A stretch of DNA of 62,707 nt, the filler included, from Basidiobolus ranarum (lineage: Eukaryota): the NCBI GenBank assembly GCA_040143965.1. It is 32 parts of 32 records of this genome, joined end to end, with 100 filler letters (N's around TTAATTAATTAA, not from the genome) between each part and the next. Parts side by side here need not be neighbours in the genome. Positions count along the whole stretch, not along the records: positions 39,323 to 41,183 come from JASJQH010004201.1; 31 more parts are not named here. One strand, written 5' to 3'. Below the pieces are notes generated by a model, which did not search any database, was not told where the DNA came from, and saw only the letters and a list, made by a program, of their open reading frames with translations. Of this stretch, positions 1,007 to 41,983 are shown piece by piece. How positions within the stretch are numbered: the stretch's first letter is position 1; each line of letters opens with the position of its first letter. The translations under genes were made by a program, and so were the position numbers.

Positions 1007-1871
1007 TTACAGAATATTATAACCAGACTTGTTATGAGAAGGCCCTCCTGAGCCTGTCTTCCTGTGAAGCCACTATTGGGATGGTGAAATATCTTCTCAA
1101 AGTCAGGCAAATTTGAGTCTGTGCCAATGAATTGTTTGTCCATTAGCTGATATGTGTGTCATAGGCAATCTCTGGTAACTTTAAATATCCAGTTTAAAGA
1201 AACTGAAGTTTTTTTTGGTGATTTTTCACAATGGCACAAAGGTTCCTTTGGCAATTAATTTTGTCTTTATGGTGTCATTAGTATATGTCTTAACTTTGGG
1301 AGCACTGGCTTCAACTCTTGATTTTACTGCTTGGATATGCTTCTCCTTTGCTACTATTTGGTTAGGTTCATCTATTAAAAGGATGGTAGGTTGGGGTTTC
1401 ATTTGTTTGCCGGAATATTTAGATGACATCTACAGACTAAGTAAAAGGGTGACTTCTGAGTTGTGCTATGTACTCTGTTTTGGAAGGCAGTTATGCTGGA
1501 TTAATGTACCCATTGCAATTGTATGTTTTTGCATTTCTATACTGCTAGATCATCCTACCAACAAGTCCATATAATCTCTTGATGACTGCATTAGTTACTA
1601 GATGGTGGCAAGAAGTTCTCCAATGCCAGATATTTTTGAGTTCTAAATTAGCTCTGCTTTCTTGACCATACAGTTAGCCCCTCTTTTTATCAATTATTCT
1701 GTGAAATCAAATATGGTATAGAGTTTCTACATGTCTAGCAATTTTGCCTGCCTCAGGATAAATTTAGTTATGTACTTTTTCCCCTGTTAGTTCAAAGAAT
1801 ATTTGGTCTGCCAGAAATTTTAGTATTGGTATAGGGCACTCCAATTCTTCCTTGACAAATATTTCCTTGAG

Positions 1872-1971
1872 NNNNNNNNNNNNNNNNNNNNNNNNNNNNN
1901 NNNNNNNNNNNNNNNTTAATTAATTAANNNNNNNNNNNNNNNNNNNNNNNNNNNNNNNNNNNNNNNNNNNN
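1872..1971. other. Artificial contig-joining spacer (first of 31 identical spacers, about every 1.96 kb)
   Basis: 44 N + TTAATTAATTAA (stops in all six frames) + 44 N; contig lengths fall steadily from 1871 to 1854 bp. Confidence 0.99.
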
Positions 1972-3842
1972 CTGTAAGAGAAGAAAACAATGCAAAACTA
2001 TCTGAAATCAAAGTTTTACTCCAGGTTAAAAAAGAACAAAGTGCCTTTAACATAATTTGTCTTGATGTTAAATACAAATTGCTGATTCAATGTTCAAGAG
2101 CTAAAGCTGCCAAGAATGTATGGAAAGCCTTGGAAGACACCTACAAAACAAGTTCTGCTGCCAACAAGATGCTTCTAGAAAGACAATTCTTTAACTTAAA
2201 GATGAAGCCAGGAGAAGACATTGAATCACTAATTAATAGAGTCACTATTTAAGTGGATGATATGGAATGCTTTGGAGCACCTACTACTGATCAAGATATC
2301 ATAGTCACAGTCCTGAATAGCCTGCCACATGAGCTTCAGTGTCTATTAATGGCTCTAAAATTAAGAACTGAAAATTTGACCTTAAGTTATGTATTTGGCA
2401 GACTTCTGGATGATGATTTATGCAAATCAGGATCCAACCAAAAGAATGAAGAAAATGCTTTAATAGGCTATGGGAAACCTTCCTATAAAGGTCAAAAGCA
2501 CTTTAAAAAAAAAAGTAATACATTCTGTGATTACTGTAAAAGAACTGGCCATTTAAGCAGAGATTGCTTCAAAAGAAAAGCAAAAGAAGAAAAACATACT
2601 AAATCTTGAAATGTGGTTACCACAGAAGATCACTTATTCATATCTGCTCTATCTATGACTACCATCAAGGATTCTCAGGCATGGTATATTGATTTTGGAG
2701 CTTCCTAACATTTCACAAATGAAAAATGTTGGTTTGTGGATTATGAAAAAATCCCAATTAGAAAGGTTTTCATGGGAGATGACCACACTTTGGATGCTGT
2801 TGGAATGGGAACAATTCAAGTCAATTTAACTAGAGCTTCTGAAGAGAAAGTATATACTTTTAAGGATGTACTAAATGTGCCAGATATTGTGAAGACTTTA
2901 ATATCTGTATGCAAAGCCATCTCAGAAGGGCTAAAATTTAATTTTGATAAGTCAGGATTCACCATCACTGGTCAAAATGGGAATTATTTAGCTTTGGGAG
3001 AAAAGGATCTGTACCTATACAAACTTACATATAATCCAAGAGACTTATGTGTAAATACAAGTTATTCCAATCAAGAAATTATTCAATTATGGCATAAGAG
3101 ATTTGGCCAAGTTGGATTTGATTTTTTGAGTAAAATTATCAAAAATCACCTAATTTCTGGAATTCAAATTAACCCCCCAACCAAAATGAAAATTTGTGAG
3201 GGTTGTATATAAGGAAGACAAGCCAGGCAACTATACAAGAGCTTTGGCTTAATCAAATCTGTCAAAAAATTGGCTCTAATTCATTCAAATTTGTGGGGAC
3301 TAATGCAAAATTTATCTTTAGTTTAAAAAAGATATTTAATGACATTTATTGATGATTATACAAGATACACTTGGGTCTACTTTATGGAAAGAAAAGAAGA
3401 AGCTCTCACTATCTTTAGAGATTTTAAAGCACTTGTGGAGACTGTAACTGGAACTAAAATCAAAAAAATACATACTGATAATGGTGGAGAATATGCTTTA
3501 ACACTTTTTAAGCACTTTTGCATACCTTTTAGGCAGAATCTGTTGCTACAGCTGTATACCTGAAGAATAGGAGCTTTACCAGAAGTTTGTCTAACTCTAC
3601 ACCATATCAAGCTTGGTTTGGAGTTAAACCTGATGTAAAACATTTGAGGATCTTTGGATTTATTGCTTATGTCAAAATTGTGACCAAAAATTGGTCTAAA
3701 TTTGATACAAAAAGTAAGAAATGCATATTTCTGGGTTATTGTACTCAAACTAAGGCCTACAGACTCTATGATACCAATATTTCCAAGTTAATCAAGTCCA
3801 GGGATGCTTTGTTTAATGTAAATGAAAAAATTTTATTGGGAA
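1972..3842 (+). mobile_element. Decayed Ty1/Copia family A gag-pol: gag, CCHC knuckle, protease, pre-integrase, integrase
   Basis: CDYCKRTGHLSRDC knuckle; WYIDFGAS protease; LWHKRFG; TFIDDYTRYTWVY; TDNGGEY; KCIFLGY; many stops and an internal deletion. Confidence 0.95.
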
Positions 3843-4112
3843 NNNNNNNNNNNNNNNNNNNNNNNNNNNNNNNNNNNNNNNNNNNNTTAATTAATTAANN
3901 NNNNNNNNNNNNNNNNNNNNNNNNNNNNNNNNNNNNNNNNNNAACATTTACTTAATTCGGAGATTGCCAATTGTGTGCAAACAGTATATGACTTCAGGTG
4001 TTCAGATCAGTGGTGAAAGCCAAACAATCATTTGGACATGAAGATAGTTTAATAACTAAAGAATTATAAGTCATACAATTGACAAGTGTTTTCCACTTGT
4101 ACCAGGTCTGTG

Positions 4113-5812
4113 CCCTAACAGAAATTTGAGGACTGTTATTGTAGGAAAACTGTCACAATTTTAATCCATTTTGGATTGACCATTTACTTACCATCATAAA
4201 ATTGGCAAGTTTGATTTGATTTTAATCAATTTTTTCAGTTTCAGGACTGAAAATGCAAGATCTTGCAAAATAGTTGCACATGAATGGCTACAATGTCAGC
4301 AACCTTTGGACCAACATATGTGCAAAAAAGGAACTCAAATTTTACACATATACTACTTGAATGCTTATTTGTCACCTTTGCAATTCCTAGTTTCTTTGAT
4401 ATGTTCTCCTGAATATTTTTATAAAGTTATTCATACCCATGGTTTAGCTCATACCCAACACAAGTTTGCATCAATATCTCCATCAAAGCCCACCATTGTA
4501 TTAACGTTGCTGAATCAACATTCTTCCAGTTATCTGGCAGATACCATGCAATATTGTGCCACTCAGTATTAAGTTCTTCCCAGATATCTGCATGGTCAAC
4601 ACCAGACTGAATGTCAACTTGAATGTTCTTCTTCTGAAGCCACTTTCCACATACTTACACTGCATTTTTCCCTTCACACTTTTGAAAACACTACTCAAGT
4701 ACTTTTACTATTTTCATACATCCTTGTAGTGTGACACTACTGAGGGTCCTTGGGAGTGTTTGTACAGCTTTTTGCTTGCCTTTAACTTTGGGACTAATTT
4801 CAAAACTTTGGAAAGTACCAGTTGAGGTTGAAGAACCATGAGTTTTAATTGCTGGTGCCTTAGCTTGTTGAGAGGTACCAGGTGTTGGATAAACTTCCAA
4901 ATTTAGCACTCTTCCAGCTGGTGTACCTGATTCCATGGTGAAATTAAGCTTTGTTGCCTGTATATCTGACTCTGGAAATGTAGATCTTTGTAATGGTGTG
5001 AAGAATTTGGTAAGTGGGACAGTAGAGCCTAAACTCACTGGCTCCTTTGCTCTTCCCTTGGGTCTAATAACTTCCTGCTCCTTGAGTACTTCTTTAGCTG
5101 CTTTTCTATCTTTTCCAAGTCAATAATTATGTAAATATTTGGGATGTTTCATAAATAGGCCTATACCAGCCCAATTGCCATTTGCTTGCAAAAACCCATG
5201 ATAAGCAACATAAAATAAGGGAAGAACCTTCAGAGTAACACCTGGTTTTTGGTTTTTCCACAATTAGCTCAAATCTAGGTGATTATGGGCAAGATTCCAC
5301 ACAGTTTCCAAAATGTTAAACCGCCCATTGTCACAGCAAGTGACAGCAGCTCCAACATTCAGAGTCTTTTGGTTTGCCAGTTTTCCTATGAGATTTCTAC
5401 TTTCATGTGCCCAAGCAATTTTGGGTTGTTGTAAAGCAACTTTGTAGTTTTTACTTATCATTGCATACAAATCATCATGGTGTTCTGCCTGCAATTCCCT
5501 TGTTGTATTTATTCTATCCAAATTTTCTGCATGGGGTTTGTTTAATAGTGAACAAAGTAGCCATTTTGGAAGTTGATGGGCCTGACAGTGTTTCAGTCAA
5601 GCTTTGCTCAACTATTGATTTACTATGTAATTTAGGGACTACAATCTCTTCACTTGCACTATTGCTGGAAAGGAACATATCTAGTAAATTGCTTAATGCT
5701 TGATCATTACTTGTGTTAGTGTCTTGCATTTTAATGCCTTACTAATTGGATATTTGATTTCTGGTCTGCTCATCAATTAAGTACGCTGTTCTTGCTTGTT
5801 TTTTTCCTTTTT
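4113..5812 (-). mobile_element. CMC/CACTA-like transposon end (terminus CCCTAACAGAAAT at 4113) with degenerate accessory ORF reading toward the terminus
   Basis: Same terminus in about 9 copies in the window; ORF pieces 5514-5729, 5264-5521 and 4691-5038 are collinear with 25587-26740 and 33439-34010. Confidence 0.75.
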
Positions 5813-7881: not shown

Positions 7882-8304
7882 ATAATCAAAGAAGCAATGA
7901 GGTTAGTCCCACCTGTGCCTAGCCTAGGTACACGTGAAAGTACGAAGCTCGTTAAATTTCAAGACAAGCTATTCCCAACTGGAACGAAATTTGCACCACA
8001 TGTATACTCCATGCAAAGATCCAAAAGCTATTGGAGTGACCCCGAAGTATTTAAGCCAGAAAGGTTTTTAGATGAGGATAAATTAGTGTCGTCTAGTTGG
8101 CTAGCCTTTGGTAGTGGCTCTAGACAATGTATTGGCATGAACTTCTCACTAATGGAGCAGCGAGTTTCTTTGTCAATGTTGCTGCGACGATACAGTTGGT
8201 CTCTACCCGAGGACTCAGTTCATACAAATAGGATCTTGAAAATCAGCTCTAGGGGGCTATTAGCTCCAGAAACATCAGAGCTTCGTTTTGAACATTTGAC
8301 TTAG
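7882..8304 (+). CDS. Cytochrome P450, 3' part
   Basis: KEAMR (ExxR), FKPERF, heme motif FGSGSRQCIG; 5' end cut by the contig edge. Confidence 0.97.
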   Translation: MIKEAMRLVPPVPSLGTRESTKLVKFQDKLFPTGTKFAPHVYSMQRSKSYWSDPEVFKPERFLDEDKLVSSSWLAFGSGSRQCIGMNFSLMEQRVSLSMLLRRYSWSLPEDSVHTNRILKISSRGLLAPETSELRFEHLT

Positions 8305-23618: not shown

Positions 23619-24108
23619 CAGCAGTCCACTTGACCAATTGGGAGAATGATTCAAGACCACGAAGAGCTCCGTACACACTCCTGGCTTTAATGGTAGCCTT
23701 GCCACCACGAGCTGGGACATCGATAGTGTACGACTCATCGGTATCAAGATTGAGTTTGGTATTGTGGCCACTGACCTGAATACTGAGTCCAGTCAATGTA
23801 GGGTACTTGCCCTTGGGAGCGAGCTGATGAATGGGGACAGAAGTAGTAGGAATGGGGAACACAGTCTTCTCAACTGGGTTAAGGAGGGAACTGAACTCAC
23901 CCTTGGTGAAGATCAACTTCTTGTAGCGGTGAACGGCTCTCTCAAGGATATCAGCACCAGCTGGGGTCTTGATAGAAATGTCGAGTTCGCTTCTGCTCAA
24001 ACGGATGATGTTGTGGCCAACATCCATCTTTGCAGGCAAGGGCCAGACCCAAGCCATTGAAGTGGCAGCCAAGAGAGAGATGGAGGTGAGAATTTTGATG
24101 GCAACCAT
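23619..24108 (-). CDS. Secreted beta-N-acetylhexosaminidase (GH20), N-terminal part
   Basis: Signal peptide, VWPLP, DTDESYTIDVP, ARSVYGALRGLESFSQL. Confidence 0.93.
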
Positions 24109-38565: not shown

Positions 38566-40719
38566 GAAACACCTACCATAGCACTTTCAACAACAGAAGC
38601 TGAATACATGGCTGCCGGTGAAGCAACAAAAGAAGAAATATGGTTGAGAAAACTCTTAATGGATTTGGGTTATTCTCAAAATTCACCAATGACAATATTT
38701 CAAAAAAATCAAAGTTGCATCAAATTAGCTAAAAATCCCACATTTCAAAATAGAAGCAAACATATAGATATTGAGCATCACTTCATTAGAGAGACTATTG
38801 AGAATAGGTTTATTGACTTAACTTATTTTTCTACACAGGACATGTTTGCTGATATATTTGTTTAAGTATTTGGGAGCTTGTTGGAATTGGCTTGAAGAAT
38901 TTGAGGAATTGGTGGTTCTCACTTATTGATTTATTGAGTAGAAAGTTGACATTTATAGTTTTGTCAAGATGTAAGCAAACTAACATGTGGAATGTGTTAA
39001 GGAAGGTCTCCAGAACACATGTGCAAAGTGTGGGCTTCTAGCACAAGTTTGAAAAATCTATATATCTGAGAACTTCTGAGTTGGTAAAATATTTCAAGTA
39101 ATTTTTAATTGAGAATAATTGATAATATCTTAGTGAGTTATCTTTTGAATCCAAGAATGTCTGATTTGAGCCATTTTTGGTCAAGTTAAGCAACAAAAAG
39201 TAATCATTCCTACCATTACACCNNNNNNNNNNNNNNNNNNNNNNNNNNNNNNNNNNNNNNNNNNNNTTAATTAATTAANNNNNNNNNNNNNNNNNNNNNN
39301 NNNNNNNNNNNNNNNNNNNNNNTAATCTGATTTCTGAAGCTTATTACTAGATGCCCGTTGATGGAGCACAGCTATATATATTGCGTTTTATTTTCAGCTC
39401 AGACGCCTAAACGTTTGTATATCAGGCTTTTAATTCGGTCCTAATTGAGTTTTTCAGTGACACTAAATGGTAACCATAGCGTGACTGTTTCTACTATCGT
39501 CAATAAAAACACGGCTTCTTCCACGGCAAGCTTGGCTATATTATTTCTATCTTCTGATCTTCATCCACCGATAACCCTTTGGTAAGGAATCGAAGCAACA
39601 CCATTGGCCACTTACTTGATGTTAATGTTCGTAATACGAGACTGTTGTAAACAGCAGTCACATAGTATCGTGATCTGATTAGTCATTCTACCGAAGCTGG
39701 TGGGTATTTCGTCCTTGTGACGTCATAACATTACTACTGTAATCTCAACTAGTGTCTACAGTCTAAGGATAGCGAAGATGCGAGATACTCACGGTGCTCT
39801 GAGACTCCTTACCATTGACGTTACACATTTTAACGGGCTCTTGAGTTACACTTACCTTGGTACATTGTGGTTGATAATCATCATGACAAAGGTTTATACA
39901 TTCACTGGTTGCCCGATTCACCGATTGCATGGACATTTCAGAATTAGGCAATTCCCAGGGGAAGTATGAAAGCAGTCAACTGTCAGCAAATCAGAAAGCT
40001 TCAGCAGATGGTCGGATTGCACCCGAATTTCCTACGAGCTTGGCATTGACACTGCCCGTACAAAACAACTTTGTAGCGAACAATGCAGAATATATTTACT
40101 TATTTCACGGCATTTCCGGATCAAGAGGTTAGTTGCAATCAGCTAAGGACAGTTTAGGCTATATCTATGTATGCCAGGCTGATAATCCTTTCCCATCAAC
40201 CTTTATAATACGTGTAACTACTGGAATGTAAGGCCTCAGGGTAGGATTCAAGTGGACTATCGATTTAATGATAGATCGGCAGAATACAATACAACTAAAA
40301 ATCTAACAAGCAACTGGTACCAGTAAATGGTTAGAGTTATTCTCAGGAAACAAGTAATTAGATGATAAACTAAGAGACAAATACGCATGAGGTCTAGCAA
40401 TTCGAACCATTCAAGGTGCTACATATTGCCAAGAACGTAGACCAGGGACTTCATTATATCGTAATAACAAGAATTAGTATTTGCAACATATCATTACTTT
40501 TTACTATTTGTCGTCGATAAATATCTCTCCTCACCGGTTCCCAATATGTTAACATTTTCGAACCCTTGTCAGTAAGTTGAAGGTTTTTTAACTCTTGCCC
40601 CATTGACATGTTCCTTTATCATAGCAATGATGACATACTGGTAGACCAAGCTTAATGGTATAGTTAAAAATGTTTAATTTCTTGGTTATATCAGGTATAC
40701 CCCCAATAAATGAGTTCAA

Positions 40720-41183
40720 AAGAGTACCGCCAAAAGTCCCAACAGTCTCGGTCATGGCATCCATACATTTTTGGTTTTTGCACCTAAATAGATGACAATC
40801 AGCTTCGTTTTTTTTTTCGGCTTGCATATAAAAAGCTTTTACCTTAAAAGCCCATGGCATGTTACAGTGGGTTTCTTTTCTCTTTTAAAAGGTCTCGGGT
40901 TCTGTACTTCTTTGAATATTTCAAGCTCGCCGTTTCCACAGACAGGACACAAACTAGAAGTTTTGAAGCCTTCTTTGCTAGCATTCTTCTCATTCTAATG
41001 CCTCTAATGGGCTCGTGAAACTTCACATTTCCGACAGTCCAGTTGCCGATTATCATCACAGCATCATCGCCAAACTTTTTCTGAAGATTCCTGGCTAGTC
41101 GTTTGTCTGATTGCTGTCGATTTATAAAGCTTGAAAGTTTCATTTTTCGGAATGGCAGCAAATTACTTTCTCGGTTTTCTGCA
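40720..41183 (-). pseudogene. Fanzor (eukaryotic TnpB-derived RNA-guided nuclease, likely Fanzor1) C-terminal remnant with a spliceosomal intron
   Basis: Reconstruction: LPFRKMKLSSFINRQQSDKRLARNLQKKFGDDAVMIIGNW..KFHEPIRGIRMRRMLA / EGFKTSSLCPVCGNGELEIFKEVQNPRPF..TCHGLLR [59-nt GT-AG intron 40784-40842] CKNQKC; matches my recollection of fungal Fanzor RuvC-II/Zn-ribbon motifs. Confidence 0.85.
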
Positions 41184-41283
41184 NNNNNNNNNNNNNNNNN
41201 NNNNNNNNNNNNNNNNNNNNNNNNNNNTTAATTAATTAANNNNNNNNNNNNNNNNNNNNNNNNNNNNNNNNNNNNNNNNNNNN

Positions 41284-41983
41284 CAAGAGAAAGTCAAAGG
41301 ATATATCGAGAGTTACCATGCTCATCAATACCGCCAAGTAAGATGAAGGTATAGTAAGGGAAAAAGCGCTTGGAGTAAAGAATAATAGAGACCATTTGGG
41401 CGATAGCACCAATAGACATCTCTTTATCGTGAGCATGTTTGTACCACTGAAAATATTTAAAAAAGTTAATATTTAGAGTAAACAAGTCAAATATGATATA
41501 CTCCGCTATACCTCAATTCTTTGCTTTATTCTCTTAACCAAGGCGAGACCGTCAGCGTGAAAGCCGTTAGTAGCGATGACTACCTTGTTAGTGCTAAATT
41601 GAATGAAGTTAAAGTGTAATAAATGCAAGTATGGAAATCTCAAGGTTTCTGGTTAGAAAATAGAAAGGATACATTTGGTAGGCTTTAGGTACATAGCGAG
41701 AGTTGATCGTGTATCCCTCACTTTGACGAGTATCTGCAGCGATAACACAATAGTCCTTGCCAGCTATAGCCAAACTGGTTCTGTTTTTGGAAAAAGTCAA
41801 GGAGTTAATAGGGATTTTTCAAAATTCTCACATAGTGAAGAAAATACGGTCAAAGAAATTTCAGTTCATAAAAGTGTGTACGTACCCTCCATTATCGGTG
41901 TATGGGGAATATTTATGCTCTATAGGAGCTTGAAGTGGATTGGAGATTGGATGGTTTAAAGGATGGCCGTTGATGTATGACAT
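41284..41983 (-). CDS. PRE7: 20S proteasome subunit beta-6 (PRE7/PSMB1), 5' exons; 3' end cut by the contig edge
   Basis: ATG at 41983; spliced reading YSPYTDNGG/TSLAIAGKDYCVIAADTRQSEGY../NGFHADG../WYKHAHDKEMS..LYSKRFFPYY..GGIDE with canonical GT-AG introns. Confidence 0.96.

Follow-up and report, generated by a model that had tools for sequence, protein, structure and literature searches.

A probable inactive C-terminal fragment of a PpFz1-like Fanzor1 gene on a short contig of a Basidiobolus ranarum assembly

The minus strand between positions 40735 and 41182 holds, spread over three reading frames, the C-terminal part of a Fanzor1 gene. We consider it very probable (roughly 0.92) that this fragment is the C-terminal part of an inactive pseudogene derived from a Fanzor1 gene of the clade containing the Parasitella parasitica protein PpFz1. 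Fanzor1 proteins are eukaryotic, TnpB-like, omega-RNA-guided RuvC endonucleases carried by DNA transposons. Besides the Parasitella parasitica Fanzor1, whose structure has been solved, the clade includes numerous copies from Rhizopus, Gilbertella, Helicostylum, and other Mucorales. The split, intron-containing pseudogene was recoverable by careful reading and had been missed by ORF-based annotation.

The window, i.e., the whole stretch of 62,707 bases analyzed, is made up of 32 unrelated contigs of 1854-1871 bp, separated by splitting at the N spacers and sorted by descending length; the N-run map showed 62 runs of exactly 44 N, corresponding to N44-TTAATTAATTAA-N44 joiners. Because unrelated contigs are concatenated, features that seem to span or adjoin across a spacer (e.g., 41184-41283) are artefacts. 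The fragment lies on contig 21, its sole real genomic context, which matched only itself when compared with all 32 contigs using blastn. Its upper edge at 41183 is an assembly break at the contig end and no biological truncation. Since the assembly breaks there, the N-terminal two thirds of the protein (WED, REC, and RuvC-I) are absent from contig 21, and the RuvC-I catalytic Asp would fall upstream of position 41183, outside the contig. The three frames were recovered by tblastn with five family proteins as queries; the same search revealed no Fanzor copy in the other 31 contigs of the window and nothing outside 40735-41182 better than E 0.15.

Transposable-element fragments were observed on other contigs: a reverse transcriptase with RNase H (PF00078, PF17919; 22088-22918, minus strand), a retrotransposon gag (PF03732; 49510-50106, plus strand), a retroviral-type polymerase SH3-like domain (PF25597; 55919-56329, minus strand), and a DDE_Tnp_4 transposase (PF13359; 36209-36622, plus strand). 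Repeats are abundant in this part of the assembly. A host-gene fragment encoding a cytochrome P450 C-terminus (PF00067, E 2.6e-37) was found at 7882-8301 (plus strand) on another contig. Two proteasome-subunit exons (PF00227) separated by introns are located at 41297-41818 (minus strand), also on another contig, and are no neighbours of the Fanzor1 fragment because an N spacer intervenes. Contig 13 carries the N-terminal part of a beta-hexosaminidase (23619-24063, minus strand) whose best matches, in Basidiobolus meristosporus, are 73-79% identical to it; the search listed 9 of 272 candidates at E<=1e-5. Judged by these matches, the assembly looks Basidiobolus-like.

Reference loci for the DNA comparison came from a metagenome scan that returned five loci (L001-L005) from 183 pattern matches. 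L001 encodes, in two exons, the full-length family member P0026 at 99.6-100% identity. Placed against these loci and the family proteins, the features of contig 21 are as follows.

39323 to 41183, no strand assigned: contig 21, 1861 bp, 39.1% G+C.
40977 to 41182, minus strand: exon piece A, the end of the linker and the RuvC-II strand region, LPFRKMKLSSFINRQQ..FGDDAVMIIGNW..HEPIRGIRMRRML-A, its 5' side cut by the contig end.
41045 to 41047, minus strand: Gly codon of I-G-N-W, at the presumed canonical TnpB RuvC-II Glu position, a rearranged site typical of Fanzors.
40976 to 40977, minus strand: 1-nt deletion that leaves an Ala codon with only two bases relative to L001 and L002 and moves the reading from frame A to frame B (DNA alignment, columns 217-225; tblastn frame change).
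40843 to 40976, minus strand: exon piece B, with K-E-G-F-K, T-S-S-L-CPVC, and the TNB (zinc ribbon) domain as far as HGLL and the first two bases of a split Arg codon.
40962 to 40967, minus strand: TTCAAA junction of an in-frame 24-nt deletion, seen as a single 24-column gap relative to L001 and L002.
40938 to 40949, minus strand: first Cys pair of the zinc ribbon, C-P-V-C, aligning with CPKC of PpFz1.
40784 to 40842, minus strand: intron of 59 nt, phase 2, GTAAAA...CTGAT...TTTAG, homologous to the L001 intron at 4038-4096.
40735 to 40783, minus strand: exon piece C, the last base of the Arg codon, CKNQKC (40782-40765), and then MDAMTETVGT, the last homologous stretch.
39323 to 40734, no strand assigned: the downstream 1.4 kb, in which Fanzor homology is undetectable.

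Frame A, read from 41182 to 40977, contains the motifs in the order AENRESNLLPFRKMKLSSFINRQQ..FGDDAVMIIGNW..HEPIRGIRMRRML, and its full translation is AENRESNLLPFRKMKLSSFINRQQSDKRLARNLQKKFGDDAVMIIGNWTVGNVKFHEPIRGIRMRRML. The tetrapeptide I-G-N-W is encoded at 41050-41039, and G-N-W was nearly invariant in an alignment of 14 sequences; the rearranged RuvC-II of Fanzor1 is therefore present in the fragment. From the conserved G-[ND]-W block of this alignment, the Gly of I-G-N-W would be equivalent to the canonical RuvC-II Glu position. In Fanzors, Gly or Pro takes the place of that Glu, with an alternative Glu lying downstream (PMC10530073). The 1-nt shift leads into frame B (40976-40843), which contains (K)EGFKTSSLCPVCGNGELEIFKEVQNPRPFKREKKPTVTCHGLL(R) and has the full translation KEGFKTSSLCPVCGNGELEIFKEVQNPRPFKREKKPTVTCHGLL. 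Piece C continues in a third frame from 40783 as (R)CKNQKCMDAMTETVGT and was aligned by tblastn to residues 476-506 of P0026. Its CKNQKC constitutes the second Cys pair, so that the Fanzor1 zinc ribbon, T-S-S-L-CPVC...C-KNQK-C, is completed across the intron. A first-pass annotation of this DNA had proposed exactly such a four-Cys ribbon, finished by CKNQKC beyond a 59-nt GT-AG intron with a CTGAT site at 40784-40842, and both elements were recovered here.

The intron, read from 40842 to 40784, begins with GT, ends with AG, and carries CTGAT 19 nt before the AG. It has the same position, phase, and length as the intron of L001 (4038-4096): both are 59 nt long and split the same Arg codon after its second base. 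The gapless alignment of the two showed 39 of 59 identical positions, 28 of them among the first 34 nt and 11 among the remaining 25, and scored 24, compared with -3.5 +/- 4.3 (maximum 11) in 500 shuffles. Two relatives, P0026 and P0005, are annotated as spliced at the junction between HGLL-R and CKN, and the models P0002, P0010, and P0036 end at HGLLR or a few residues later, reading into the intron, as expected if the intron was missed by the annotator. Judged by these alignments, the intron on contig 21 is homologous to the annotated, spliced Rhizopus-type intron. Its first 34 nt (28/34) are more conserved than the third codon positions of the flanking exons (54/98), and the intron start of L002 is the same as in the fragment and in L001. 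This 5' conservation may possibly reflect recent common ancestry or constraint on the intron; a bolder reading is that the 5' 34 nt could have been kept for a function of their own.

When piece A was searched against a library of 5.8 billion proteins, 40 proteins at E<=0.01 were found among 50 candidates. The best match, and the sequence closest to the fragment, was P0001 (E 7.8e-24, 86-94% identity), the Basidiobolus ranarum hypothetical protein K7432_005041. It was followed by proteins from Rhizopus microsporus (78-81% identity), Gilbertella persicaria (67-72%), and R. delemar/arrhizus (59-72%); the Rhizopus and Gilbertella proteins matched in the 1e-22 class. An exhaustive HMMER search of 1.84 billion cluster representatives gave 243 matches at E<=1e-3 and 40 at E<=1e-10. 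Among ten further cluster representatives, six were named, and all six came from Mucorales (Helicostylum, Cokeromyces twice, R. microsporus, Pilaira, and R. delemar). Piece B alone matched 19 proteins among 21 candidates, with a best E of 1.8e-12 (P0036); these 19 listed proteins include a model from Coemansia biformis and no Basidiobolus protein. The Coemansia biformis (Kickxellomycotina) model, P0223, is encoded on a 1682-bp contig and is 64% identical to the zinc-ribbon piece; it is either a sporadic non-Mucorales occurrence of the clade or a contaminant.

The gene for P0001 sits on a 22-kb contig of an independent B. ranarum assembly. P0001 shares with the fragment the unusual residues N-W-T-V-G and G-I-R-M-R-R. 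It is a model of 120 aa whose first ~50 residues are unrelated to Fanzor, and it lacks the eight residues E-S-N-L-L-P-F-R that are present in the fragment; P0001 is therefore a different broken copy of the same family. For phylogenetic placement, 213 proteins were considered; 199 of them had a match to piece A, and in 151 of these the match spanned 105 or more residues of the region. The tree had 91 rows: from these 151, the proteins up to P0100 or named, plus eight distant ones, together with the fragment and P0001. The fragment and P0001 formed a clade of their own (SH-aLRT 95), and this pair fell into an unresolved polytomy with Mucorales clades, at a path length of ~0.48 changes per site.

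Three observations hint that the Basidiobolus lineage received its copies (the fragment and P0001) through horizontal transfer of a Fanzor1 transposon from Mucorales and did not inherit them from the ancestor shared by the two fungal phyla. The distance of the copies from the Rhizopus, Gilbertella, and Helicostylum clades is no greater than the distances among these clades; the third codon positions of the fragment are still 55% identical to the Rhizopus-type copy and thus unsaturated; and the intron can still be aligned (39/59). We put this forward tentatively, with less than even confidence. If true, a transposon transfer between Mucorales and Basidiobolus would be the point of wider interest in this finding. 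A full-text literature search for Fanzor together with Basidiobolus returned nothing; the supplementary tables of the 2023 surveys lie outside the text it covers.

The Mucorales affinity of the matches also raises the question of whether contig 21 is host DNA at all or contaminating Mucorales DNA in the assembly. The contig is just 1.86 kb long and carries no host marker, its exons and intron align to a Rhizopus-type locus, and the named relatives are all from Mucorales except P0001 and the one Coemansia model on its 1.7-kb contig. However, by far the closest sequence is P0001, from the 22-kb B. ranarum contig of an independent assembly, with which the fragment forms a separate clade at SH-aLRT 95, and no Mucorales sequence among the matches listed exceeds 82% identity. 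We therefore regard contamination as improbable and treat the fragment as a Fanzor1 pseudogene of a Basidiobolus-like fungus, which thereby becomes one more past host of the PpFz1-type Fanzor1 clade.

The lesions were placed by DNA alignment of the fragment with L001 and L002. A frameshift near 40975, already called in the first-pass annotation, corresponds to one base missing from an Ala codon at 40977/40976 relative to both loci. That annotation had also claimed a loss of about eight codons, including the catalytic Glu, between GFK and TSS, and this loss appeared as one clean, exact 24-nt gap. The lost codons encode V-Y-L-L-D-E-F-(K/R), the last RuvC beta strand with the catalytic Glu just before T-S-S. 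L001 reads V-Y-L-F-D-E-F-R across the gap and other relatives V-Y-L-L-D-E-F-K/R; the site as a whole reads GF[QK]VYLLDEF[RK]TSS in the relatives. The alternative catalytic Glu of Fanzor1 (L-L-D-E-F-K/R-T-S) is thus missing from the fragment, its eight codons being deleted. The position of this Glu in Fanzor1 and the D/E/D triad are given in PMC11423790. At the gap, the fragment has the hexamer TTCAAA, L001 has TTCCAG...TTCCGG, and in P0036 the lost segment is flanked by F-K at either end. The 24-nt deletion may reasonably be attributed to slippage between two short direct repeats, i.e., TTCAAA microhomology; of the earlier proposal of ttcaaa microhomology, the hexamer itself stands and accords with the flanking F-K of P0036, and the mechanism stays at the level of a plausible reading. 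L002 (positions 80-500 of a 1351-bp contig, a metagenome or WGS relative) is also a pseudogene: its HEP region has a 1-nt gap when compared with the fragment and L001, and its homology ends shortly beyond the start of the intron.

The 3' end was examined with a C-terminal family profile built from 49 sequences (84 positions), which matched contig 21 only at profile positions 1-38 of 84, in two frames, to just past CKNQKC. A second profile restricted to RuvC-III (30 positions, consensus RRRLWNRDLAAVLNF...) did not find the RRLWNRD helix in any of the six frames of contig 21; its best score was -3.2 bits, on the plus strand, and 50 shuffled contigs reached 4.4. The first-pass annotation had placed a decayed RuvC-III at 40720-40750, and this claim is not supported, since the family profile detects no such element there and its best score lies on the wrong strand. 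Two candidates, the frame-1 stretch RLLGLLAVLF at ~40750-40720 and a MAFFT placement at ~40700-40670, were suggestive by eye and were rejected for having no profile score. Using blastn, nucleotide homology to L001 was found to stop at position 40752, and overall homology ends abruptly near 40735-40752, after a preceding 410 nt that are ~70% identical to L001 with gaps counted. Such an abrupt loss points to a deletion, rearrangement, or assembly chimera rather than slow decay, and suggests that the 3' loss is a structural break. In the downstream 1.4 kb (39323-40734), no RuvC-III, C-terminal tail, recognisable guide-RNA region, or terminal repeat was found. In the blastn comparison with L001-L005, contig 21 had no similarity to the 3' gene end, guide-RNA region, or TIRs of L001. 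A search of contig 21 against Rfam, whose coverage of Fanzor omega-RNA is uncertain, gave 0 matches at E<=1; direct repeats were absent from the contig, and inverted ones amounted to three short pairs.

Taken as they stand on this one contig, the lesions mean that the copy is dead, as had been proposed, and would be unable to make an active nuclease: the missing base shifts the frame, the 24-nt deletion took the catalytic Glu and its strand, and from a point about eight residues ahead of RuvC-III the whole remainder is missing or replaced. We also considered that the gene might be alive, with assembly artefacts (an indel error, a collapsed repeat, or a chimeric contig) accounting for the shifted frame, the gap of 24 nt, and the lack of RuvC-III. 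The assembly is very fragmented, its contigs measuring ~1.86 kb, and a contig end cuts the fragment off; transposons present in repeated copies are easily assembled into chimeras, and a 1-nt assembly error and a chimeric join near 40750 are each conceivable. This would demand three independent lesions within 250 bp, however, and a typical sequencing error would not leave the clean, in-frame gap of 24 nt seen here with its bounding repeatable hexamer. P0001, the closest relative, was assembled independently and is broken as well, as its 120-aa model without eight residues present in the fragment indicates. A live gene is thus very improbable, and we retain the reading of an inactive pseudogene.

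Over 98 aligned codons, identity to L001 was 73/98, 86/98, and 54/98 at codon positions 1, 2, and 3, respectively; 38 codons were identical, 31 differed synonymously, and 29 differed non-synonymously. This pattern indicates that most of the divergence took place under selection on the protein and that the disabling lesions came comparatively late. The ancestor was, by this reckoning, probably once active, with its divergence mostly under purifying selection. It would have had a rearranged RuvC-II (G-N-W) and the catalytic Glu in L-L-D-E-F-K/R just before T-S, followed by a C-x2-C...C-x4-C TNB ribbon with the conserved 59-nt phase-2 intron and then by RRLWNRD (RuvC-III).

The assignment to Fanzor1, and to its PpFz1-like clade, follows from the homology searches and includes matches to solved structures. 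All 40 listed matches of piece A and all 19 listed matches of piece B belong to the Fanzor1 family, and their motifs line up with those of the fragment. In the PDB, piece A matched PpFz1 (9cf0) with an E of 2.3e-13 at residues 1092-1145 of chain 9cf0_P and piece B with an E of 8e-10 at residues 1165-1206, the numbering being that of the MBP fusion. The full-length relative P0026 matched PpFz1 (9cf0-9cf3) with an E of 1.6e-140 and SpuFz1 (8gkh) with 3e-50. The PDB matches were to these two Fanzor1 proteins only, and a closer homology to Fanzor2 or IS607-type TnpB was not found. Pfam gave nothing significant on the three pieces, the best being PF07282 (Cas12f1-like_TNB) on piece B with an E of 0.15; in a Pfam scan of seven relatives, PF07282 stayed below the gathering score even on full-length proteins, and PF26935.1, an annotation carried by many relatives in the protein library, did not appear. 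No better match to a non-Fanzor zinc-finger family was found in the Pfam, protein-library, PDB, or HMMER searches of the pieces. That the pieces are an unrelated zinc-finger or other coding remnant with a chance likeness to Fanzor, a view to which only the lack of a significant Pfam domain on any of the three lends itself, can practically be dismissed given E values of 1e-9 to 1e-24 for two pieces independently and a collinear order, intron, and motif spacing that are all as in Fanzor1 relatives or solved Fanzor1 proteins.

These results bear out the first-pass proposal of a Fanzor remnant split over three minus-strand frames, whose listed features lie where it had put them; a comparison of the reconstructed peptide with Fanzor and TnpB, which it had called for, gave significant Fanzor1 matches and no unrelated zinc-finger family. 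Its further suggestion of an uncharacterised Fanzor family did not hold: P0026 is closely related to PpFz1, and a catalogue from 2013 already covered Fanzor1 families of Rhizopus and Mucor (PMC3627910). On this comparison, the fragment is a commonplace relic of a known family with published structures and biochemistry. Since the literature describes the Fanzor1 family along with its catalytic layout, introns, and structures, the finding in itself matters little.

L001 also provides an intact, Rhizopus-type element for comparison. Positions 1721-4580 form a transposase-less element of ~2.9 kb with a single two-exon Fanzor1 gene (2356-4361), bounded by TIRs of 135 nt (1721-1855 and 4446-4580) that are 89% complementary. 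No second gene was found between the TIRs, where the Fanzor frame alone reaches 100 aa, and no clear target-site duplication was seen in L001. For some Fanzor1 elements of Rhizopus, Phycomyces, and Mucor, MuDR-like ends are reported by Bao and Jurka (PMC3627910).

Among known systems, PpFz1 (PDB 9cf0-9cf3; Cell 2024, PMC11423790) is the closest solved protein and has the motifs LPFRKMK, G-N-W, T-S-S, C-P-x-C, and HGLLRCKN in common with the fragment. According to that paper, it is active as a DNA endonuclease guided by omega-RNA, and its TAM is 5'-ATN. In contrast, the copy on contig 21 is without the Glu-bearing strand and RuvC-III, is frameshifted, and has its N-terminal domains unassembled; the FRI insertion of PpFz1 is outside view, as contig 21 begins just past the FRI site. 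SpuFz1 (PDB 8gkh) is much more distant, with E values of 2.5e-4 for piece A and 0.067 for piece B. SpuFz1 and bacterial TnpB share with the fragment the RuvC plus TNB architecture and the motif order [TS][TS]-x-x-C4...RD, and the Fanzor motif is given as D-X-[TS][TS]-X-X-C4-X-RD in PMC3627910. The Fanzor1 copies of Rhizopus arrhizus/delemar (P0026 and relatives) have 60-82% amino-acid identity to the fragment on piece A, with collinear exons and the homologous 59-nt intron, and grouped with them are the catalogued Rhizopus Fanzor1 copies, the ROr families of Bao and Jurka (2013; PMC3627910).
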